NCBI GenBank assembly: GCA_046484345.1
Contig: JAWOJA010000067.1
Span: 22,905-86,904 of the forward strand
From: Kiritimatiellia bacterium
GTDB lineage: Bacteria; Verrucomicrobiota; Kiritimatiellia; CAIKKV01
Length of the DNA: 64,000 nt
Direction of reading: 5' to 3'
The position numbers were made by a program, and so were the translations under genes. Below, in pieces: positions 1 through 10,037 of the stretch. The notes beneath the pieces are model-generated. The model had not been told where the DNA came from. It saw only the letters and a program-made list of their open reading frames with translations, and made no database searches. Within the stretch, counting starts at the first letter, position 1, and each line of letters starts with the position of its first letter.

Positions 1-20
1 TGACGGAGGACGAGACTCAT
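1..20 (-). CDS. 5' end of a gene running off the left edge (MSLVLR...)
   Basis: ATG at 20-18 on the minus strand preceded by AAAGGAAG (RBS-like); only 6 codons are visible. Confidence 0.3.
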
Positions 21-107
21 CGGGACTTCCTTTCGTTTAATAAGACAAATGAAGCGCTTTAAAATAACAGGAGTAAGAATATGAATCAAGCATCAGTCTA
101 TTGGGGC

Positions 108-136
108 TTGATTTCGGAGCGGCAGGGCGATATAGT
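108..136 (+). promoter_or_regulatory. sigma70-type promoter for tRNA-Gln
   Basis: TTGATT(108-113)-N17-TATAGT(131-136), about 30 bp upstream of the tRNA. Confidence 0.6.
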
Positions 137-164
137 AAACCCGTTTTTACTGATCTTTTAAGAC

Positions 165-238
165 TGCCCGATGGTGTAATGGTAGCACAACAGACTCTGA
201 ATCTGTTTGTCAAGGTTCAAGTCCTTGTCGGGCAACCA
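165..238 (+). tRNA. tRNA-Gln (anticodon CTG)
   Basis: Acceptor stem TGCCCGA/TCGGGCA, D-loop TAATGGTA, anticodon arm ACAGA-ctCTGaa-TCTGT, T-loop GGTTCAAGTCC, encoded CCA end. Confidence 0.97.
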
Positions 239-248
239 ATTGAGGAAT

Positions 249-1523
249 TCAATCGATTCCGGCAGGAAGGCTGAACCAGAACGTGGCGCCCTGCTCCGGT
301 CCGGACTCCACCCAGATTCGCCCGCCATGGCGCTCCACGATTTTTTTGCAGATAGCCAAACCGATGCCGGTGCCCGGATATTCCTCCCGCCCGTGCAGTC
401 GTTCGAAGACTTTGAAAATCCGTTCGGAATCGGCTGGCGCGATTCCGATTCCGTTATCGGCCACATGGATCAGCCATTCGCCGGCATCCTGTTTGGCCCC
501 AATCGAAATTACAGGGCGGCGACCCTCCACGCGGAACTTGAGGGCATTGCCGATCAAGTTCTGGAACAACCGTTTCATTTGAGCCGCATCGGCCTTTACC
601 GTGGGCAGCGGGCTGACGGTGATCTCCGCGTGGAGTTCTTCTATGCCGGATCCCAGGTTGGCAATGGCGTCGTTGGCAGCGGCCGTCAGATCCATCGCCG
701 TCGGCTCCTTGCCTTCGGCGCCGACCCGCGCATATTCCAGCAGATCTTTAATCAGGGCCGACATGCGGCTTGCTCCGTCGACCGAAAAACCGATGAACTC
801 CTGCGCCTTCTCGTCGAGCTGCCCCTTGTACCTGTCCCTTAAAAGGGACAGGAATCCGCCCACCGCGCGCAGCGGCTCCTGGAGATCGTGGCTGGCGACG
901 TAGGCGAACTGTTCGAGATCTTTGTTGGACCGGGCCAGCTCCGCTTCCTTCTGGCGCAGCGCCGCCTGCTGTTCGTGTAGCTGCCGGATCAGGTCCGTGG
1001 AATTTTCCAGCTCGGTCAGGTTGGAGGCGACAACGCAGACGCTCGCGCCCTCGGGCAGGTTCAGCAGGTTGGCCGAAACGAGCGCCGGGACGGCCGTGCC
1101 GTCGCCGGCCTGCAGCACGAGGCGGAGTTTGACAGGGCGACTTTGCGCGGAGAGAATCAAAGAGGCGGCGGCCTCCCGATCGCTTTCGGAAACAAATTCT
1201 TGCATAGGATGTCCGATAATCTTCACCAACGGCCGCGTGACGAGCTGTCCGAACTGGGTGTTGCAGAACAGGATATTGCCGTCGAGCGTGACGGTGAAGG
1301 CGGCTTCCTGCATGGTCTCGATGATAAGCCTGTAAACCGTGTCGGCGCCCGCGAACGAAAAGATTTTACTATTGTCGTCCGAGCCGATGACGGCGTCGAC
1401 CTCTCCCTCGCGAATGGCGCGCAGCGTTTCCTCGGCTTCCGCCAAGCGGACACGCACCGCGTCAATTTGCTCCCGCAAAGACTGTCCCTTTTTTGTTTCT
1501 GTCATGTCGGGGGCTAGGGGCAT
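249..1523 (-). CDS. PAS-domain sensor histidine kinase downstream of kaiB
   Basis: H-box ASHDLQEPLR, N-box FQNLIGNALKF, G boxes DNGIGI and GTGIGLAIC, one PAS domain. Start set at ATG 1523 after AAGGAG, just past the kaiB stop; the ORF track's 1724 start overlaps kaiB. Confidence 0.92.
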   Translation of the reverse strand: MPLAPDMTETKKGQSLREQIDAVRVRLAEAEETLRAIREGEVDAVIGSDDNSKIFSFAGADTVYRLIIETMQEAAFTVTLDGNILFCNTQFGQLVTRPLVKIIGHPMQEFVSESDREAAASLILSAQSRPVKLRLVLQAGDGTAVPALVSANLLNLPEGASVCVVASNLTELENSTDLIRQLHEQQAALRQKEAELARSNKDLEQFAYVASHDLQEPLRAVGGFLSLLRDRYKGQLDEKAQEFIGFSVDGASRMSALIKDLLEYARVGAEGKEPTAMDLTAAANDAIANLGSGIEELHAEITVSPLPTVKADAAQMKRLFQNLIGNALKFRVEGRRPVISIGAKQDAGEWLIHVADNGIGIAPADSERIFKVFERLHGREEYPGTGIGLAICKKIVERHGGRIWVESGPEQGATFWFSLPAGID

Positions 1524-1525
1524 GG

Positions 1526-1852
1526 TTACTCCTTGGGGCGAATGTCCAGCCCGGCCAGGATCCTGTTTTGATCCGTAAGGTTGCCGATGAATCGCCTCAC
1601 CGGCGCAGGCTGGTTTTTGATCAGCGTGGGAACGGCCACGATCTGATCTCTCTTGGCGAGAGCGGGTTGCTGGTAAATGTCGATAACCTCCAGATCGCAA
1701 CGCCCTTCCAGGTGGGTCGAGCAAATATCGGTAATCGAGCGGATGGCGGCGGAGGAGCGTGGCGTGATGCCCGCCACATAGAGCCGCAACACGTAGTGTT
1801 GTTCACGGGAGGCCGTTTTTTTGAGGCGCGTTTTTTTCGGGCGCTCTTTCAT
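1526..1852 (-). CDS. kaiB: KaiB-family circadian clock protein
   Basis: YVLRLYVAGITPRS...LEVIDIYQQP...IVAVPTLIK...PVRRFIGNL, the KaiB signature. Confidence 0.95.
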   Translation of the reverse strand: MKERPKKTRLKKTASREQHYVLRLYVAGITPRSSAAIRSITDICSTHLEGRCDLEVIDIYQQPALAKRDQIVAVPTLIKNQPAPVRRFIGNLTDQNRILAGLDIRPKE

Positions 1853-1857
1853 TTTTG

Positions 1858-3558
1858 CTAATCCGCTTTTCGTGCCAGCGCTATTTGCCGCCGTCCCCTG
1901 TACGTAATTTTTTGCCGTTCACCGGCTTGGTTTTTGGCAATATTTAATTCCGCCCGGATGCCCGCGCGGCGCTTTGCAATGAGATCGGCCTGACCGCGCA
2001 AGGAGGACTGTTCCTGATCCAATTCTCGTTGTCGCCGCTCGGCTGTCTGTTGAGAGGCCACGGTTTTGGCCTCATCGCTGGCCTCCTGTACCAGGCGGGC
2101 GGAACCGGTGAGCACCTCGTCCGGGCCCACGTAGACGTCCACCAGTTGGATGCCGTCGCTGCTGAGATGGACCTCTCGCATCTGGTTGGAGTGAGCCATG
2201 CCCCGGCTCTTGAGCACGAAAAGGAGCCGGTTCCGCTCATTCCTCGATTCCAATATGCGAATCAGAATCCACGTGTCCATCAGAGATGAAATGTTGATGT
2301 CGTTTTGCCCAAGGGGGTCGCCGAACCACGTGAGAAAGGTAAACAGGGACGTGATCCCCATATTCTTCAGATAGTCGATGAGCCGGATCAGCATCAACCT
2401 CGCCTCGGGTTGCTCGCTCGTCGGCGTCAGGTCGGTAATCGAGTCGATGGCCATCGCGTCGGGTTTGAATTCGTTGACCAGTTTGTGAAGCGTTGCCAGA
2501 TGCATCTCCAGGCCGTACAAAGTGGGACGAACCGTATGAAACTTAAGCTGACCGGTTGTCCGCCATTTCTCGAGATTAATTCCTATGGAACGCATGTTCC
2601 GGATAATCTGATCGGCCGGTTCCTCAAACGAGACTAGCAGAAACTTGCCGCCGTCCCGGCAGATGCTTTCGGCGAATGCGCACGCCAGGCTCGTCTTGCC
2701 CGTACCGGGCGTGCCGGACATCAGGATGGTGCTGCCGCGGTAGTATCCTTTGCCGTCCAGCATGGCGTCCAGCCGAGGGATCCCGGTGGAGACCCGTTTC
2801 GAGGAAACGGTGTAGGACAGCCCAGCGGAACTGATCGGCAGTACGGAGAGGCCTGTTTCGTCGATCAGCGTGGGATACTCGTTCGTTCCGTGTTGCGATC
2901 CGCGGTATTTCACCACGCGCAGGCGGCGCGTTGAGATCTGGTTGTGAATCCGGTGATCCAGAAATATCACGCAGTCGCTGATGTACTCCTCGATGCCGTG
3001 ACGCGACAGCGACTTCTGGCCCTGTTCGCCCGTTATGATGGCGGTGACGCCCTTTTTCTTCAGCCATAGGAACAGGCGTTGAAGCTCCGACCGAAGAATA
3101 CCCTCATTTGTCAGACATGCAAAAAGCACATCAATGGCGTCCAGCACAACGCGCTTGGCGCCGACCTGCCGGATCATCATATCGAGTCGGACAAAAAGGC
3201 CTTCCAGATTATATTCGCCGCTCTCTTCCATTTCGCCTCGTTCGAGATGGACGTGGTCGATTGCCATCTTATTTTGACCGATCAGGCCGTTGACATCGAA
3301 CCCCAGAGAGGAAACGTTTACGGCAAGGTCCTCGGCGGTCTCCTCGAACGACATGAAGGCTCCAGGTTCGTTGAATTGGGTGATGCCGCGCACAATGAAC
3401 TCCATCGCCAGCAACGTTTTGCCCGATCCGGCGCCGCCGCAGACCAGCGAGACGCGCCCGCGGGGCAATCCCCCACACGTGACTTCATCCAAACCAGTGA
3501 TGCCGGTCGGGCATTTTCTCAATTTGGGAATAGCTCGGACGGTGTGTTTCTTTTTCAT
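1858..3558 (-). CDS. kaiC: KaiC-family double RecA-type ATPase with C-terminal coiled coil
   Basis: Two Walker A motifs (GGAGSGKT, GTPGTGKT), SFEE catalytic pairs in both domains, KYRGSQH and KSRGMAHS, phospho-site region ISSLMDTW, VLTGSAR tail. Confidence 0.96.
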   Translation of the reverse strand: MKKKHTVRAIPKLRKCPTGITGLDEVTCGGLPRGRVSLVCGGAGSGKTLLAMEFIVRGITQFNEPGAFMSFEETAEDLAVNVSSLGFDVNGLIGQNKMAIDHVHLERGEMEESGEYNLEGLFVRLDMMIRQVGAKRVVLDAIDVLFACLTNEGILRSELQRLFLWLKKKGVTAIITGEQGQKSLSRHGIEEYISDCVIFLDHRIHNQISTRRLRVVKYRGSQHGTNEYPTLIDETGLSVLPISSAGLSYTVSSKRVSTGIPRLDAMLDGKGYYRGSTILMSGTPGTGKTSLACAFAESICRDGGKFLLVSFEEPADQIIRNMRSIGINLEKWRTTGQLKFHTVRPTLYGLEMHLATLHKLVNEFKPDAMAIDSITDLTPTSEQPEARLMLIRLIDYLKNMGITSLFTFLTWFGDPLGQNDINISSLMDTWILIRILESRNERNRLLFVLKSRGMAHSNQMREVHLSSDGIQLVDVYVGPDEVLTGSARLVQEASDEAKTVASQQTAERRQRELDQEQSSLRGQADLIAKRRAGIRAELNIAKNQAGERQKITYRGRRQIALARKAD

Positions 3559-3737
3559 GGCCAGGGCACGAACCTTTCGGAAGACGCAGGCATAATAGAA
3601 AGCCTATCCTCCGCCGGCTATGGGCTGTTCACCCTACAAAGCGCGTTGCAGGTAGTCCGCCGGTGGCGATGGCGGGCTCGCCGCCGGGCGATAATTTCTA
3701 ATTGAGGGACAACACGCCGGGGCATCCGGCAGTCCCC

Positions 3738-5630
3738 CTAGCCCAGCCGGTTTTTTTTCAGCAGGACCGAGAGGATGGCAATGTCCGCCGGCGTGACCCC
3801 CGGAATGCGCGAGGCCTGGCCCAAGTTGTCAGGCCGTATTTTCTTTAACTTTTCACGCGTTTCAAACCGGAGAAAAGGCATGGAATCGAAGTCTAAATTA
3901 CTCATAAGCAGTTGGAGTTCAAGCACTTGCATCGATTGCAGCTGTTGCTGCTCGCGCTGGATGTAGCCTTCGTACTTGATGCGGATCTCGACCTGTGACG
4001 CTAACTCAGGGGGAAGCTCAGCCCCCTTCGGCAGGTCGGCATAATGGACCTCGGGGCGGCGCAGCCGTTGCGCCAGGGACCCGTCGGCAATAAAGCAGTG
4101 ATTCAACCGATCGATCTCAGATTCGATGCGGTGCTCCTCGGCTTCAATGGCGGCCAGGATAGCTGGCGCCAGCAGGCCCGCTTCCCGGGCACGTGAAGCC
4201 AATCGGTAACAGGCGTTGTCCTGCCTCAGCGAAAGTCGGGATTCGGAACGTGAGGTGAACATCCGGTACGGTTCATCAGTGCCCTTGGTCACCAGGTCGT
4301 CGATGAGAATTCCGATGTAGCTTTCCAGGCGAGAAATTTCAAATGGGGGCAGCCCCTTTATCTGGTGGACCGCATTCACCCCGGCCACAAAACCTTGTGC
4401 CGCCGCTTCCTCGTAACCGGTTGTGCCATTGATTTGGCCCGCAAAAAACAGCCCCCCCACCCGCTTGCTTTCCAGGGTGTGCTTGAGCTGCGTGGGGTCG
4501 GAGTAATCGTATTCAATCGCATACGCCGGTTGGAGAAAGACCGCTTTCTCCAGTCCAGGAATCGAACGGATCATCTTTTCTTGAACGGGCACTGGAAGAC
4601 TATTGCTCGTTCCGTTGGGATAAAGCTCGAGCGAATCGCGTCCCTCCGGCTCAATGAAGACATGATGCGCATCTTTGGAGGCGAATTTGACCACTTTATC
4701 TTCGATCGAAGGGCAATAACGGGCGCCCGTCCCCGAGATCAGCCCGCCATAAAGCGCGCTTTCGTGTAAGTGGGACTGAATGAGCGCATGTGTTTCCCGG
4801 GTGGTATGGGTTAGGAAACAGGGAAGCTGATGGTGGCCCAGCGGCCAGGGACGCAAAGCGGAGAGTGGATGTTCCATGTGGAACAGGGGGTTGTTTTGTT
4901 CCACGTGGAACAAGGACCATTCTCCCCTGCCCGTCCTGGAGAAAAAAGGAGGAGGCTCTTCACCCGGTTGGATGCTCATCCGGCTAAAATCAACCGAATC
5001 GCGGTGGAGTCGTGGCGGGGTCCCTGTTTTTAACCGGGCCATCGAAAATCCCAGCGCTTTGAGACTCTGGCCCAAGGAGACCGACGCCTCTTCCCCGATT
5101 CGGCCGCCGGAAACCTTTTCCTTCCCAATAAAAATCTCGCCATTAATAAAAGTTCCGGCGGCGATGATCAGGGCGCGACATTCAAGTTGTCGTCCGTCCC
5201 GTAGCTTTACTCCCGAAACATGCTCGCCGTTTGTTATAATCGACTCGACCATGCCGTCGACACAGGTGAGGTTGGGGGTCGAGTGCACCACGGCCCGCAT
5301 GCGGGTCGAATAGGCGGCTTTGTCGCATTGCGCCCGGTTCGCCCGCACGGCGGGCCCCTTTTTCGTATTCAAAACGCGGAATTGAATCCCGGTGTAATCG
5401 GTGTTGATGGCCATTTCGCCGCCCAGGGCGTCCAATTCGAATACAAGATGGGACTTGGCGATCCCGCCAATCGAGGGATTGCAGGACATTCTGCCGATGG
5501 CCAGGCGATCCATGGTTACGAGCGCGGTCTTGACGCCCAGGCGCGACGCGGCCAAAGCGGCTTCACAGCCGGCATGACCGCCGCCAATGATGATGACGGC
5601 GAAGGTGGAGGAGGGCAGGGAGGTAGCCAT
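3738..5630 (-). CDS. mnmG: tRNA uridine-5-carboxymethylaminomethyl(34) synthesis enzyme MnmG (GidA)
   Basis: [66 protein letters not shown]; start set at ATG 5630. Confidence 0.97.
4870..4885. promoter_or_regulatory. parS (ParB-binding centromere) site, one mismatch
   Basis: TGTTCCATGTGGAACA versus the parS consensus TGTTNCACGTGNAACA. Confidence 0.75.
4897..4912. promoter_or_regulatory. parS (ParB-binding centromere) site, perfect palindrome
   Basis: TGTTCCACGTGGAACA, a perfect 16-bp palindrome matching the parS consensus. Confidence 0.88.
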
Positions 5631-5632
5631 GG

Positions 5633-6997
5633 TTACTTGCCTATGCAAAAGCGTGAGAAAATCTGATCGAGCATGTCGTTATAGTAAGTCCGTCCGGTTA
5701 AACGACCCAGCAACTCGGCCGCTTCGCGCAAATGGGCCGCTGCTGGCACAAGCCCTTCGCCCGAAATCGTCTCCTCCAGGTCAAGTGCCGAAGATAGAGC
5801 TGAGCGGGCTTGGAAAAGCAACTGAAAGTGTCGTTCTGAAATCGTGGCATGCGGGGCTCTCTGCGGGTGACGATCCAACGCATTCGCAAGGGCGGTATGC
5901 AACGCCTGTAGCCCAGTGCCGTCTTTCAAGGACATAGTTAATATTTCGTAACCATCGTATTTGGAAGCGTTTACGACAGAGCAAAGGTCTGTTTTGTTCA
6001 TCAAGACAAACGTTTGTTTCGGCTTGGATTCGCGGATGCTGGCCAGGTCCGTCGTGGAAAACGGAATTGAGGCGTCGACCAGGTGTAGGCGGATGTCCGC
6101 TTTCTCTATGCACGCCTGCGCCCGCGCAATCCCCTCCTTTTCAATCGCACAGCCCGTCTCGCGCAGTCCGGCGGTATCGACCAGCCGGATCGGCAAGCCG
6201 TTCAATACAAACGTTTCCTCCAGGATGTCCCGGGTTGTGCCAGGAACCGGGGAGACAATGGCTCGCTCCCGGCCGAGCAATCGATTGAGTAGGGTGGATT
6301 TGCCGGCATTGGGGCGACCCGATATCACCACCAAAGCGCCCTCCCGGAGACGATGCCCTTCCTCCCATGTGGCGAGCAGTTCATCTAACGCATCAACCGT
6401 GTTTCGAACAGCTTGCATCGATTGTAGGGCCAAATCATCCGGAAAATCCTCTTCCGGAAAGTCCAGTGTGGCCTCCAGATCCGCCGCCGCGTGGATCACG
6501 CGATCATAAATCCCGCGCATCGTCTCGCTCAGCCGCCCCGCCAGTTGTTCCACGGCAGACGAGGCCGCCCGGGCCGATTGGGCGCCAATCAAGTCCATAA
6601 CCGCTTCCGCCTGCACGAGGTCCAGCCGGCCGTTGAGAAAAGCCCGCCGTGTGAATTCACCCGGCTCCGCCGATCGCGCACCGCACTCCAAAACACGGCG
6701 CAAGATGCGGCGCGCGCTTTCCTGGCCGCCATGGCATTGGATCTCGACCACCTCTTCGCGCGTATAGCTTTTTGGGGCACGAAAGATCAGTAACAGGCAT
6801 TCGTCCAAAATCCCTTCGGAGCCCAGCACTTTTCCATACACAAAGGTCCCGCCGGGCCGACGGGAGGGCGGGGGAGCGGCGCACCGGAAAAGCCGGTCGG
6901 CGATTTCCAAACTGGCCGGCCCCGAGAGCCGAATCACGGCAATGGCGGCCGTTCCCGGCGCCGTGGCGATGGCGGCAATGGTGTCCTGCGTATGCAT
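5633..6997 (-). CDS. mnmE: tRNA modification GTPase MnmE (TrmE)
   Basis: [46 protein letters not shown]-terminal FCIGK. Confidence 0.97.
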
Positions 6998-7218
6998 GAA
7001 GTTTCAGTATACAGCTTCACCCCGGATTTTGCCATCTTCTCGTGTGACTGTCGAAAAAGGTGGGGCAGGGGGGGGGCTGCGCGCCCGCTCGAGGACCGGA
7101 GATGAAAGAGGATGGGTCTTGCGGCCTGACCCGCTTTGTTTTAAAGTTAAAACAGAAACAAGAACTCCTCAAACATTTCCATATCCGGTTATGAACCGGC
7201 AGGCAAAGGAGCTGGGCG

Positions 7219-7695
7219 TTGAATGATTTAAGTGATGCGGCACGCGTGGATAAGGCGACCCAGGAGCCCTTTTCCATTTCCGTGCGCGTGACCTACGCCG
7301 ACACGGACCAGATGAACATGGTGTACCACGCCAACTACCTGGTCTATTTCGAGATGGCCCGAACGGAACTGCTGCGCGCCTACGGGTTGCCCTACGCGCG
7401 GCTGGAATCCCTCGGCGTGCTGTTGCCGGTTGTGGAAGCGCATTGCGCGTACCGAAGCCCCGCGCGCTACGACGACGTGCTGACCGTTCAGGCCGTTCCC
7501 GAAATCACGGGCAACGTCCGTTTCCGTATTCACTACGCCGTCTGCCGCGACGGGGAGCGCCTGGTAACCGGGTATAGCGACCACGCCTGCGTGGGGCGGG
7601 ACGGCCGGCCCCTGCGCAGGCATGGCGATTTGCAGCGCGTCCTGGAGAAGGCCATTGCCGAACGCGGGGCCGCCGCCCCGGGAGGAGGAGCATGA
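7219..7695 (+). CDS. YbgC/FadM-family acyl-CoA thioesterase
   Basis: RVTYADTDQMNMVYHANYLVYFEMAR hotdog-fold motif; start codon uncertain. Confidence 0.88.
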   Translation: MNDLSDAARVDKATQEPFSISVRVTYADTDQMNMVYHANYLVYFEMARTELLRAYGLPYARLESLGVLLPVVEAHCAYRSPARYDDVLTVQAVPEITGNVRFRIHYAVCRDGERLVTGYSDHACVGRDGRPLRRHGDLQRVLEKAIAERGAAAPGGGA

Positions 7696-8774
7696 CGGAT
7701 CCCCGTGTCACCGCCCAAGCCCGGATCCTGGTCCGCTACTGCGTGGACGCCCGCGAAGGGCAGCAGATCGGCGTCTCGGGCACCTCGCTGGCCGAACCGC
7801 TTCTCGAAGACGTCTGCGAAGAGCTGTACCGAATCGGCGCTTTCCCCGCGCTGCGCATGAGCCCCTGCAACCTGACGGAAAAGTATTTCCGCGTCGGGAA
7901 GGAGAACCTGTTTAAAACGCTGCCGTCGTTCCAGCTCGATTATGCCCGCCGGATGGATGCGACCATCGGCGTGCAGTCGGAGGGGAACACGCGCGGCCTT
8001 ACCGGCGCGGATCCCGCCCGGTTTTCCGCGCTGGCGAAAACCATGCGGCCGGTCCGGAAAATCCTGATGCGCAAGCGGTGGGTGACGACCGTGTTCCCGA
8101 CGGCCGCCTACGCCCAGGACGCCGAGATGAGCCTTTCCGAATTCGAAGACTATGTCTTTGCCGCGCAGTTTGCGGACGAGCGGGACCCCCTGCGGCGCTG
8201 GGCCGAACTTCACCGCCTGCAGGAGCGGCTGATTGGCAAGCTGAAGGGGGCGGATAAAATCCGCATCGAGGGGCCCGACACCGGTCTCACTTTCTCCGTC
8301 AAGGGGCGCACCTTTATCAACTCCGACGGAAAACGGAACATGCCCAGCGGCGAAATTTTTACCGGCCCGGTTGAAGACTCGGTCGAGGGGCACATCCGGT
8401 TCGATTTTCCCGTGTGCGTTCAAGGGCGGGAAGTGGCCGGCATCCGGCTCGTCTTCAAAAAAGGAAAAGTGGTGGAGGCGTCGGCCGACAAGAACCAGGC
8501 GTTCCTGCTCACGATGCTTGATTCCGATCCGGGCGCGCGCCGCCTGGGCGAACTGGGCATCGGCACGCATCCGAAAATCAACCGGTTCATCCGCAACATC
8601 CTGTTTGACGAAAAAATCGGCGGCACCATCCACCTGGCGCTGGGGCAGTCCTATCCCGAGACGGGCGGGCGGAACAAGTCGTCCCTGCATTGGGACCTGA
8701 TCCGCGACTTGCGCAAAGGCGGGCGGCTGACGGTCGACGGCCGGGTGTTCCAGAAAGACGGGCGATTTGTGTAG
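7692..8774 (+). CDS. M29-family aminopeptidase (AmpS/AmpT type)
   Basis: NMPSGEIFTGP, GARRLGELGIG, LFDEKIGGTIHLALG, SSLHWDL. Confidence 0.92.
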   Translation: MTDPRVTAQARILVRYCVDAREGQQIGVSGTSLAEPLLEDVCEELYRIGAFPALRMSPCNLTEKYFRVGKENLFKTLPSFQLDYARRMDATIGVQSEGNTRGLTGADPARFSALAKTMRPVRKILMRKRWVTTVFPTAAYAQDAEMSLSEFEDYVFAAQFADERDPLRRWAELHRLQERLIGKLKGADKIRIEGPDTGLTFSVKGRTFINSDGKRNMPSGEIFTGPVEDSVEGHIRFDFPVCVQGREVAGIRLVFKKGKVVEASADKNQAFLLTMLDSDPGARRLGELGIGTHPKINRFIRNILFDEKIGGTIHLALGQSYPETGGRNKSSLHWDLIRDLRKGGRLTVDGRVFQKDGRFV

Positions 8775-8840
8775 CGCGGCATGCGCCGGAGCGATATTCT
8801 GCAGGGGCGGGCGGCAACTTCCAACGAGGCGAGGGCGGAG

Positions 8841-10037
8841 ATGATTTCGAAAGCGTTGATTGACCGATTGTTCGGGGCGGCCTCCATCCAGCGATGGAAC
8901 GACCATGTGCGGCCCGTCGAATTGACCGAATTGGACAAACAGGCCCACAAGGCGTTCATCATGTTCCTGCTCGCCAAGTTTGAGGAAGACCGCCAGCCCA
9001 ATCCCCCGCTCGACTGGGCTTTTCTCATCGACGGATTGATTTTTGAATTGCTGCCGCGCGTGGTGCTGACGGATATCAAGGCCCCGTTTTTTCACCGGCT
9101 CATGAAGACCCACGGGGACAAGGTGAACCGGTATGTGCTCAAGGAGCTGGAACCGGAACTGGAATGGATGGGCGATTTCCACACGCGGCTGGCCGCCTAC
9201 CTGAATGGGGACCGGGAGGGGAGCCTGGAGCGCCGCATCCTGAAGGCCGCCCATTACCTGGCCACGCAGTGGGAATTCCGCCTGGTCTATCACAGCGGGC
9301 CGTTCCTCTACGATATCGATAAAACCCGGGCGGGGATCGAGAACCAGCTTGAGGACTACATCGACCTGTTGGGCGTCCGGAAGATCAGTCTCAAGCAGAA
9401 GGCCTATGGCTTTGTGGATCTTTGCGGGCAGCTTCGCTTTCAGCAGCGCTGGGCGCAGACCCCGCGCATGCCGAGCACGTCGGTGCTCGGCCACTCGCTC
9501 TTTACCGCCGTCCTGACTTACCTCTTCGAGACCGGCCGCGGCTTTTGTCCCGCCCGCCGCCGCAACAATTTTCTCGGCGCACTGATGCACGATCTTCCGG
9601 AGGTGTTCACGCGCGACATCATTTCGCCGGTCAAGCGGTCGTTCGAGGAGCTCGAAAAATTTGTGGAACAGGAAGAGCGTTTCCTGGTTCGCGATTCGCT
9701 GTTGCCGCTTTTGCCGGACACCTGGCACGACCAGATGATCTATTTCATCGAAAAACCGTTCGAAAACCGGATCCGCGAAAACGGCGAGCGCCGCACGGTG
9801 ACGCTGGAAGAGCTGGATGCCACCTACAACACGGATGCTTTTGACGGGGTGGACGGAGCGCTCATCAAAAGTTGCGATCTCCTGAGCGCCATGATCGAAG
9901 CCGGCAAATCGATTGAAATCGGAATTGGCTCTCCCGCGTTGCGGGCGGGGGTGAAGCAGATCATGAAGGACCGGCAGAAAAAAACGGACAACTCCGTGCC
10001 GCTCGATTATTTTGAAATGTACAAACCGGCGGGCTGA
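8841..10037 (+). CDS. HD-domain protein with tandem YfbR-like domains
   Basis: Two similar units: SIQRWNDH...TDIKAP and QQRWAQ...VLGHS...MHDLPEVFTRDIISPVK; start ATG 8841 (alternative 8781). Confidence 0.8.
   Translation: MISKALIDRLFGAASIQRWNDHVRPVELTELDKQAHKAFIMFLLAKFEEDRQPNPPLDWAFLIDGLIFELLPRVVLTDIKAPFFHRLMKTHGDKVNRYVLKELEPELEWMGDFHTRLAAYLNGDREGSLERRILKAAHYLATQWEFRLVYHSGPFLYDIDKTRAGIENQLEDYIDLLGVRKISLKQKAYGFVDLCGQLRFQQRWAQTPRMPSTSVLGHSLFTAVLTYLFETGRGFCPARRRNNFLGALMHDLPEVFTRDIISPVKRSFEELEKFVEQEERFLVRDSLLPLLPDTWHDQMIYFIEKPFENRIRENGERRTVTLEELDATYNTDAFDGVDGALIKSCDLLSAMIEAGKSIEIGIGSPALRAGVKQIMKDRQKKTDNSVPLDYFEMYKPAG

Follow-up and report, generated by a model that had tools for sequence, protein, structure and literature searches.

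The mnmG Locus and Its Loop Extension

The stretch of DNA analyzed here (the window; 64,000 nucleotides from an uncultured bacterium of the class Kiritimatiellia, phylum Verrucomicrobiota) carries on its minus strand a 636-codon frame (3738-5648) encoding MnmG, and the stop codon of mnmE is found 2 bases ahead of the mnmG ATG (table 1). The product of this frame matches the Pfam families GIDA (1e-151), GIDA_C_1st, and SAM_GIDA_C, and reaches 736.2 bits against the TIGR00136 equivalog (cut-off 524.85), in two matched stretches with the break at an insertion. The FAD motif GGGHAG is present, and in an alignment of 54 sequences the columns G16, G18, H19, G21, C50, and R304-Y305-C306-P307-S308 are invariant. 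The two cysteines of the catalytic pocket also align; in the 630-aa protein they are C50 and, within RYCPS, C306. The E. coli alignment and the available text of PMC12397908 match them to C47 and C277 of E. coli MnmG, given there as the two functionally important cysteines. An AlphaFold2 model of the protein (overall pLDDT 92.8, pTM 0.93) was matched by Foldseek to the MnmG chains 2ZXH, 3CP8, and 9HIP chain C, with TM scores of 0.87-0.92. The mnmG gene looks intact.

Within this otherwise intact protein, an extension of roughly 26 aa, flanked by PPPFFS and QLPCFLTHT, falls in insertion domain 2, the limits of which were taken from E. coli MnmG as described in the accessible part of PMC12397908. 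The loop counts 31 residues here (236-266 of 630 aa) versus 5 in E. coli MnmG; the alignment to the E. coli protein breaks at the extension, and that to the A. aeolicus protein shows 19 gap positions. Both alignments agree with an earlier note, made from the DNA alone, which had put the segment between the two flanks at about 25 aa longer than in typical MnmG. The stretch from GTPPR to RYCPS is 106 aa long here; most loci that carry the label of another phylum have 79-83 aa, and a few Bacteroidota 87-91 aa. AlphaFold2 predicts a helix at residues 232-242 followed by a coil without regular secondary structure at 243-270, and the mean pLDDT is 92 for residues 231-240 and 58 for residues 241-250.

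Table 1. Features of the mnmG locus (positions in the window)
Feature	Position	Strand	Remarks
mnmG CDS	3738..5630	-	likely ATG at 5630; open frame up to TTG 5648; stop codon included
Lineage-specific MnmG loop extension	4833..4937	-	about residues 232-266 of the 630-aa protein; from alignments, loop lengths, and AlphaFold2
parS site 1 (probable)	4897..4912	.	perfect 16-bp palindrome TGTTCCACGTGGAACA; minus-strand read L-F-H-V-E-Q of MnmG
parS site 2 (probable)	4870..4885	.	TGTTCCATGTGGAACA, one central mismatch; minus-strand read L-F-H-M-E-H
mnmE	5633..6997	-	TrmE_N, MnmE_helical, and MMR_HSR1 matches; immediately upstream of mnmG, same strand

Two Probable parS Sites in the mnmG Reading Frame

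The consensus of chromosomal parS in Bacillus subtilis, Caulobacter, and Pseudomonas aeruginosa is TGTT(T/C)CACGTG(A/G)AACA. The available text of a gut Hi-C study, in which parS was detected by consensus, gives it as TGTTTCACGTGAAACA (PMC10197239). Two matches to the 16-bp inverted repeat TGTTNCACGTGNAACA are found inside the 636-codon frame on the minus strand, site 1 with no mismatch and site 2 with one. Their starts are 27 bp apart and they share one codon frame (xTG TTC CAC GTG/ATG GAA CAx), in which the coding strand reads first LFHVEQ (4897-4912) and then LFHMEH (4870-4885). The central CG mismatch may make site 2 the weaker of the two.

A scan of the window allowing up to two mismatches returned these 2 sites versus 0.08 expected, a number reached in 0/100 shuffles. 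Across the whole 2,725,482-base assembly, where 0.0004 perfect and 0.02 one-mismatch sites would be expected from base composition, they are again the only sites within two mismatches, and site 1 is the sole perfect parS. The positions, spacing, and common reading frame that the earlier note had reported for two parS-like 16-mers, as well as its statement that the window holds no further full parS, are thus borne out. Both sites are perfect in 3 of 4 genomes of the same genus; the assembly of the fourth (G001, 68% complete) does not contain mnmG.

Distribution of parS in mnmG across the Kiritimatiellia

To describe the extent of this arrangement we used a class sample of 121 Kiritimatiellia genomes, mnmG being found in 117; it should be noted that most of the compared genomes are metagenome bins. 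A loop site with at most one mismatch occurs in 108/117 genomes, with one to three sites per loop (a single one in 28/117), and an exact site in 97/117. The class sample contains 169 exact sites genome-wide: the mnmG frame holds 153 of them, another 11 fall no more than 500 bp outside it, and 5 are found at other places. Exact sites occur in 98 genomes, 87 of which have them inside mnmG exclusively. The order level gives the same picture: in 31 genomes every exact site is inside mnmG, and just two one-mismatch sites are found elsewhere. Among the nine of 117 genomes lacking a canonical loop site (at most one mismatch), three carry a variant palindrome described below, G084, G101, and G108 have palindromes with changed outer bases, and G042, G058, and G064 yielded no palindrome with a CACGTG core. 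In loci labelled as other phyla the motif is absent and, mostly, so is the extra length.

The loop itself is variable. Its length differs between genomes, some of which have tandemly repeated units in it. Neighboring sites are spaced 27 to 543 bp apart (in 11 of 83 cases the spacing is not divisible by 3), and the linkers between them are variable and not conserved. In some genomes sites are located barely outside the open frame, 4 nt past the stop codon or 46-469 nt upstream.

ParB, ParA, and Position in the Genome

In ParABS systems, ParB dimers recognize a 16-bp palindrome via a helix-turn-helix. They then form CTP-dependent clamps that slide to flanking DNA, and the resulting complex serves as a loader of SMC and as the cargo of ParA. 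This genome encodes a single ParB-family match (TIGR00180, 182.6 bits, at G000:C2:11889-12401; 180 bits by hmmscan), the recognition helix of which is GKARASVANTMRLL, and a ParA-like ATPase (AAA_31, 200 bits, contig C89) that is not adjacent to parB and was detected with a model pooling Soj with other ParA/MinD-like ATPases. Nor is parB next to parS: the two are on different contigs here, and in G045, G079, and G124, relatives with complete genomes, they are separated by 0.4-2.5 Mb.

ParB was found in 120/121 genomes of the class, with a second ParB-family match in a few. To interrogate codistribution beyond the class, we tabulated 74 other genomes of the phylum: 35 have both ParB and parS in mnmG, 33 have neither, 5 have only ParB, and 1 has only parS, counts that overstate the statistical weight as related genomes are not independent. 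Four genomes without ParB were scanned whole, and no parS was found anywhere in them.

On contig C18 the cumulative GC skew reaches its minimum at about 21-23 kb. The gene dnaA is located at 19.4 kb, and the parS pair, located at 27.8 kb, is about 5-6 kb away from the skew minimum and 8 kb away from dnaA. The distance between dnaA and the mnmG sites in five relatives with complete or near-complete genomes comes to 22 kb, 68 kb, 524 kb, 1.24 Mb, and 1.94 Mb; closeness to the origin, measured from dnaA, is not general among relatives. An AT-rich valley around the sites was considered and rejected, the GC content showing only a shallow dip (0.556-0.59 over 19-30 kb of C18 vs 0.625 for the contig).

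Conservation of DNA and of Peptide

In 30 order-level mnmG genes, all 54 of 54 FHVE peptides are encoded as TTC-CAC-GTG-GAA, a count that likewise overstates its statistical weight given the relatedness of the genomes; in the rest of these genes the same four codons are used at 49, 40, 25, and 58%. It is therefore the palindrome, and not the peptide alone, that relatives keep. The residues that do vary are those whose codons reach past the 16-mer, xTG giving L, M, or V and CAx giving H or Q. In other lineages this 16-mer encodes CSTWN or VPRGT instead: of 191 in-gene sites, 168 are in the FHVE frame, 13 in the VPRGT frame, and 10 in the CSTWN frame, and one protein (L042) contains all three. 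Synonymous sites that are frozen, the use of three frames, and a variant palindrome that changes symmetrically all amount to DNA conservation beyond coding constraint. As far as codons and frames can tell, this shows selection that keeps the DNA signal and not the peptide.

The main alternative at the protein level would be that FHVEH/Q is a selected MnmG motif, for instance one that contacts a metal or a nucleic acid through its histidine, with the palindrome as a side effect of codon choice. The prevalence of the FHVE frame speaks for it, as do the conserved residues adjacent to the sites (EW preceding site 1 and LRPWxPG following site 2), the confidently predicted helix that the first site adjoins, and the retention of FHV(K/R)Q, despite a decayed palindrome, in two 0.9-Mb genomes without ParB. 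However, a peptide motif does not account for the frozen synonymous positions, for the unrelated peptides drawn from one 16-mer, even within one protein, or for the sites just outside the open frame; in the variant palindrome the two half-sites are altered symmetrically and the peptide becomes CATWH, and loci labelled as other phyla do without the motif. We reject peptide-level selection on the codon and frame evidence and regard it as barely credible. The reading of the earlier note, a permissive and possibly surface-exposed loop extended to host the centromere, with the peptide as a by-product of selection on DNA, is supported. Relatives keep the palindrome, with frozen codons and three frames; a ParB is encoded; the sites are near the GC-skew minimum in this genome; and the insertion falls in a part of MnmG predicted to be without regular secondary structure. 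All of these checks, proposed in the note, favored it. A qualification is that EW and LRPWxPG are conserved as protein, and because of this the MnmG extension is not pure filler and not only a carrier of DNA.

A Variant Palindrome and an N-to-H Change in ParB

Three genomes (G077, G110, and G119) carry the variant palindrome TGTGCCACGTGGCACA, in which T4 of parS is changed to G and A13 to C, that is, in both half-sites. It is confined to the mnmG loop, with 3, 2, and 2 sites genome-wide, respectively. The ParB proteins of these three genomes have H at a position that is N in 33/33 ParBs from genomes without the variant, and that aligns with N178 of Caulobacter, a parS-contacting residue according to the available portion of PMC7383237. 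On the ParB tree, the paired state of H and variant palindrome requires 2 changes. Judging from these sequences, the N178H change and TGTGCCACGTGGCACA might represent a natural re-targeting of the centromere that arose twice and yielded an orthogonal ParB/parS pair; taken jointly with the reading of a centromere tied to mnmG discussed below, we consider this rather unlikely. The ParB/Noc study of Jalal et al. 2020 (PMC7383237), in the part available, likewise pairs a change in the recognition-helix region with a symmetric change of a palindromic target; there the specificity positions are 173, 179, 184, and 201 and the residue corresponding to N178 is conserved between ParB and Noc, whereas here it is this residue that changes.

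Other Readings of the Palindromes

The palindromes could also act in the mnmG mRNA, where a stable hairpin formed by the two self-complementary copies would adjust translation or the stability of the message. In an 83-nt stretch of the mRNA the two sites pair with each other, and the predicted folding energy is -36.1 kcal/mol (z = -4.56), a stability matched by 0/200 shuffles; the variant palindrome, changed symmetrically in its half-sites, would keep such an RNA stem as well. Yet a stem would allow many compensatory pairs, and what is fixed is one exact 16-mer of cross-phylum consensus; site presence follows ParB across families, and the variant palindrome is accompanied by a change in the ParB recognition helix. 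A hairpin as the primary role is disfavored by this link to ParB, by the genomes with a single site, and by the sites outside the transcribed frame, and we rate it as highly improbable. A shade less probable again is that another protein reads the palindromes with no role in segregation, such as a CACGTG regulator or a ParB paralogue controlling mnmEG. CACGTG cores are common regulator targets, a few genomes have a second ParB-family match, and the sites lie within an operon that they could block; but all 16 bp are conserved, well beyond the core, this genome has one ParB-family match only, sites are lost along with ParB, and the change at the N178 equivalent points to ParB itself. As for a chance match, or a small mobile repeat that left its footprint in mnmG, the variable loop length and the tandem units of some genomes would fit, but only 0.0004 perfect sites are expected per genome, the number of copies elsewhere in the genome is zero, and the sites hold one and the same place in the protein throughout a phylum, which leaves this as the least probable of all the alternatives, practically negligible.

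By far the most probable explanation, argued here from comparative sequence data, is that this pair of palindromes constitutes the centromere (parS) of the chromosome, encoded in-frame in an extended MnmG loop. We infer that ParB would bind and load its clamps at the mnmG sites, which would thereby serve segregation. The address of the centromere would then be the uncommon part: in this bacterium, as in most of the class, it would be not intergenic but in-frame, in a poorly ordered loop of insertion domain 2. It is the 16 bases that selection keeps, and the peptide, be it FHVEQ/H, CSTWN, or VPRGT, follows from the frame. The present parS variant is stop-free in all three frames; therefore copies could be gained, lost, or shifted in the loop without breaking the gene.

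Two codes would thus share the same bases, with a DNA signal dictating amino acids of a housekeeping enzyme and a loop that grows and shrinks to carry the signal. This predicts the place of ParB and SMC loading in Kiritimatiellia, Opitutales-like, and related Verrucomicrobiota, groups for which the literature searched yielded no mapping of the loading site. Synonymous recoding could separate the DNA function from the protein function, and lineages that lost ParB and have no sites provide natural controls. The candidate re-targeted ParB/parS pair might find use in the orthogonal labelling of DNA loci. For annotation, the case of mnmG is a warning that what looks like an insertion in a conserved enzyme can be a cis-acting DNA element instead of a feature of the protein.

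A further step, doubtful in our view and weighed jointly with ParB re-targeting, is that the centromere is tied to mnmG, ParB clamps being loaded inside mnmE-mnmG, an actively transcribed operon of an essential pathway. Transcription and segregation might then influence each other: ParB could act as a roadblock or a cell-cycle gate on mnmEG expression or, alternatively, transcription could clear and reset the ParB clamps. The conserved host gene could also shield a single centromere from deletion.

Comparison with Known parS Sites

A search of the literature, mostly at the level of abstracts, on parS together with mnmG/gidA, Verrucomicrobia, Kiritimatiellia, or coding regions returned no paper with parS in the MnmG loop. 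The text examined of the Hi-C study (PMC10197239) gives no gene positions for its parS sites, the available text of a ParB review (PMC7022226) does not mention gidA, coding sequence, intragenic, or similar location terms, and the accessible parts of two Kiritimatiellia papers (10.64898/2026.10.06.756941 and PMC5148204) contain no text on parS or ParB.

The sites described here resemble the known chromosomal parS of B. subtilis, Caulobacter, and P. aeruginosa in having the same 16-bp palindrome, in the presence of genes for a cognate ParB and a candidate ParA-like ATPase, and in their few, clustered copies, close to the GC-skew switch in this genome. They differ in that all copies are in one coding gene, with a loop length that tracks the number of sites, and in that parB is not next to parS. 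In B. subtilis, parS is also known within the coding region of spo0J (parB), and other scattered intragenic parS exist; the known cases are single sites in an unmodified gene. As in spo0J, codons and a protein-binding site overlap in the same bases. Unlike in spo0J, there is here a dedicated loop extension with one to four sites, which make use of all three frames, and the arrangement in mnmG is kept across a phylum-level group, in which it is usually the only parS location of the genome.

Two parS Sites in the mnmG Reading Frame

The earlier note had placed two ParB-binding parS sites within mnmG, and both are indeed found in its minus-strand reading frame (table), where they follow the coding-strand codon pattern xTG TTC CAC GTG GAA CAx. 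A consensus scan allowing up to two mismatches recovered these two matches in the window, against 0.08 expected by chance, and beyond them no match within two mismatches in the whole assembly (2.73 Mb, 104 contigs, 92.5% complete), bearing out the statement that the window holds no further full parS; from base composition, 0.0004 perfect sites and 0.02 with one mismatch would be expected per genome. In sequence the element is an ordinary parS, and by inference it would work like one. By direct reading, TGTTCCACGTGGAACA contains no stop codon in any frame, and its T/A variant TGTTTCACGTGAAACA has a TGA in one frame. In the mRNA (window 4850–4932, minus strand) the two sites pair into a long hairpin of −36.1 kcal/mol (z −4.56; 0 of 200 shuffles folded as well), which is probably a by-product and may have an effect on expression.

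Features of the mnmG region, with dnaA and parB on their contigs (window positions unless a contig is named)
Feature	Position	Strand	Evidence and remarks
PAS histidine kinase	249–1724	minus
KaiC-like double-domain ATPase	1858–3558	minus
mnmG	3738–5648 (open frame)	minus	Pfam GIDA 1e-151 and both C-terminal MnmG domains; TIGR00136
parS site 2	4870–4885		TGTTCCATGTGGAACA, imperfect (one mismatch); read from the minus strand as LFHMEH
parS site 1	4897–4912		TGTTCCACGTGGAACA, perfect palindrome; read from the minus strand as LFHVEQ
mnmE	5633–6997	minus	Pfam; directly upstream of mnmG
731-codon open frame	7533–9728	minus	No Pfam match
dnaA	C18:19419–19901
parB	C2:11889–12401		TIGR00180, 183 bits; adjoins an argC-like gene

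The host protein scores 736 bits against TIGR00136 (cut-off 525), and the enzyme with its parS loop looks functional because the FAD motif and both catalytic-pocket cysteines are invariant in a 54-sequence alignment. The proposal that this segment is longer than in typical MnmG was borne out: GTPPR to RYCPS spans 106 aa here, whereas most loci that carry the label of another phylum have 79–83 aa and a few Bacteroidota loci 87–91 aa. The Escherichia coli alignment breaks exactly at the insertion, with 31 residues (236–266 of the 630-aa protein) opposite five, and the Aquifex aeolicus alignment has 19 gap positions there. By the domain limits in PMC12397908, the insertion falls in insertion domain 2; that paper also describes an MnmG region that is unstructured in crystal structures, and the insertion lies upstream of it. 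An AlphaFold2 model built from the 54-sequence alignment (mean pLDDT 92.8; TM 0.87–0.92 against solved MnmG chains) has a helix at 232–242 followed by 243–270 without regular structure, mean pLDDT being 58 for residues 241–250 and 81 for 251–260.

Conservation of the DNA across Peptides and Reading Frames

The closest named records are Kiritimatiellia and Pontiellaceae (the MnmG of Pontiella sulfatireligans F21 is 56% identical), and many further matches are metagenome-assembled genomes labelled "Verrucomicrobia." Among 31 order-level genomes, all 30 mnmG genes (7 families, 12 genera) carry the loop extension with parS, the single genome without mnmG being 68% complete; at up to one mismatch, 27 genes have two sites and three have one. 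Whole-genome searches placed every exact parS of these genomes inside mnmG, and only two one-mismatch sites outside it.

With sites chosen by the peptide FHVE and not by DNA, 54 of 54 order-level peptides use TTC, CAC, GTG, and GAA, codons whose usage elsewhere in the same genes is 49, 40, 25, and 58%; in a wider set of 37 peptides the counts are 37, 35, 36, and 37. Because the genomes sampled are related, the counts are not independent observations; even so, with MnmG proteins only 56–71% identical, silent positions would be expected to have been randomized long ago. Variation in the flanking residues is confined to what the free bases permit (xTG as L, M, or V; CAx as H or Q), and the preceding leucine codon is TTG in 19 cases versus CTG in three in the order-level set, CTG being commoner in the class-sample frames.

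Elsewhere in the Kiritimatiellia this 16-mer stands in other reading frames and encodes CSTWN or VPRGT, and locus L042 has FHVEQ, VPRGT, and CSTWN within one protein. The class sample comprised 121 genomes, of which mnmG was fetched for 117, four without a match at E ≤ 1e-40 being left out and several frames cut by contig ends being kept. At least one loop parS with up to one mismatch occurs in 108 of the 117, and an exact one in 97; the frames are FHVE 168 times, VPRGT 13 times, and CSTWN 10 times, with no site in 9 genes, one in 28, two in 77, and three in 3. Of 169 exact sites genome-wide, 153 lie in the mnmG frame, 11 in its 500-bp flanks, and five elsewhere, and in 87 of the 98 genomes having an exact site all are inside mnmG. 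Neighboring sites are 27–543 bp apart (modes 45 and 48), and in 11 of 83 cases the spacing is not divisible by three. The 153 exact in-gene sites, symmetrized, have biased flanks (A 0.52 at −2; A or T 0.79 at −1) in genes of 53.5% GC, and the selected footprint may extend to 18–20 bp.

Loop length in the class sample is 97–372 aa (median 112). Very long loops, measuring 243–372 aa from GTPPR to RYCPS, occur in L223 (G100), L305 (G231), L226 (G062), L068, and L075, and hold two to four sites among low-complexity or repeated linkers. Family f30 (L149, L182, L194, L163, L184, and L185) has short loops of 99–100 aa with one parS and one or two extra sites 46–469 bp upstream of the open frame; here it looks as if the centromere were partly moving out of mnmG. 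In genome G084 the loop parS has decayed to SSTWNV.

The Site Accompanies ParB across the Phylum

ParB was found in 120 of the 121 class genomes. From the phylum sample of 161 genomes, 74 of the 108 outside the class were fetched; all families with listed coordinates were covered, f54, f64, and f68 being left out, and five were subsampled (f51, 15 of 25; f55, 10 of 15; f57, 8 of 15; f58, 10 of 15; f62, 1 of 5). An in-frame parS with up to one mismatch occurs in 36 of the 74, at the loop position in 33, usually as one FHVEQ that immediately precedes (L/I)PCW. In the other three, which are Akkermansia-like, it lies 237 aa after RYCPS. Akkermansia-like loci L269, L271, L273, L091, and L093 have no loop site and carry a perfect parS as MFHVEH in the C-terminal helical domain, likewise 237 aa past RYCPS, which is a second, separate in-frame location for the putative centromere.

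Both ParB and parS occur in 35 of these 74 genomes, ParB without parS in five, parS without ParB in one, and neither in 33, the last belonging to six families. Families f51, f58, f62, f65, and f70 lack a ParB match and also parS in mnmG, and searches of four whole ParB-less genomes found no parS anywhere. In two ParB-less 0.9-Mb genomes of family f66 (L237 and L238) the peptide is kept as FHVKQ or FHVRQ and the palindrome has decayed.

Three of the nine class genomes without the canonical loop site, G077, G110, and G119, have in its place the palindrome TGTGCCACGTGGCACA, altered in both half-sites and read as CATWH or VPRGT (mnmG loci L224, L222, and L200; ParB loci L312, L309, and L310). It occurs in 3, 2, and 2 copies, respectively, every one in the mnmG loop, and is absent genome-wide from the relatives G100 and G128. 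The ParB recognition helix of these three has H versus N in 33 of 33 ParBs from genomes without the variant (G000, the genome under study, with G100, G128, and 30 more). Judged by its spacing from the GKxR motif, which it follows by five residues, the position corresponds to Caulobacter N178, a residue that contacts parS (PMC7383237). In a midpoint-rooted maximum-likelihood ParB tree, with only five taxa in the clade concerned, G077 falls outside (G128,(G100,(G110,G119))), a placement that has starred support, so that two changes are required to explain the paired state.

The frozen codons, the three frames, and the co-occurrence with ParB support the reading of the earlier note, that a loop was extended to host a centromere and that its peptide would be a by-product of selection on DNA. 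Within the extension, EW ahead of site 1 and LRPWxPG following site 2 are conserved at the protein level, which counts against a pure DNA carrier. Intragenic parS sites are known, such as the one inside spo0J of Bacillus subtilis. In contrast to these, a dedicated, evolvable loop of a housekeeping enzyme hosts the sites here, and in most of a phylum-level group appears to be where the centromere is usually, and often exclusively, placed; frame-independent conservation, absence from ParB-less families, and the matched ParB/parS variant set it apart further. The literature searched yielded no description of parS in an MnmG loop, which would be a new form of a known element.

Partition Genes, Replication Origin, and Gene Neighborhood

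The genome scan gave a parB (table), with no parA next to it on contig C2; a ParA-like ATPase (AAA_31, 200 bits) lies on contig C89. parB adjoins neither parA nor parS, and is on another contig here and 0.4–2.5 Mb from mnmG in G079, G045, and G124, which are complete or near-complete relatives. The expected proximity of parS to the origin was found in this genome: the sites are 8 kb from dnaA and 5–6 kb from the cumulative GC-skew minimum of contig C18 (about 21–23 kb). Closeness is shown for this genome only, the complete or near-complete relatives being judged by the mnmG-to-dnaA distance alone: 22 kb (G079), 68 kb (G045), 524 kb (G124), 1.24 Mb (G185), and 1.94 Mb (G183). The minus-strand mnmE–mnmG pair (3738–6997) lies right of the skew minimum, where plus-strand skew is positive; if that minimum is the origin, transcription of the pair would therefore run head-on to replication. 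A shallow GC dip over 19–30 kb of C18 (0.556–0.59 vs. 0.625 for the contig; window 1–7000) covers dnaA, the skew minimum, and mnmG–mnmE. Directly downstream of mnmG lie the KaiC-like ATPase and the PAS histidine kinase, and at this GC content the 731-codon frame may be spurious, since plus-strand frames overlap it.
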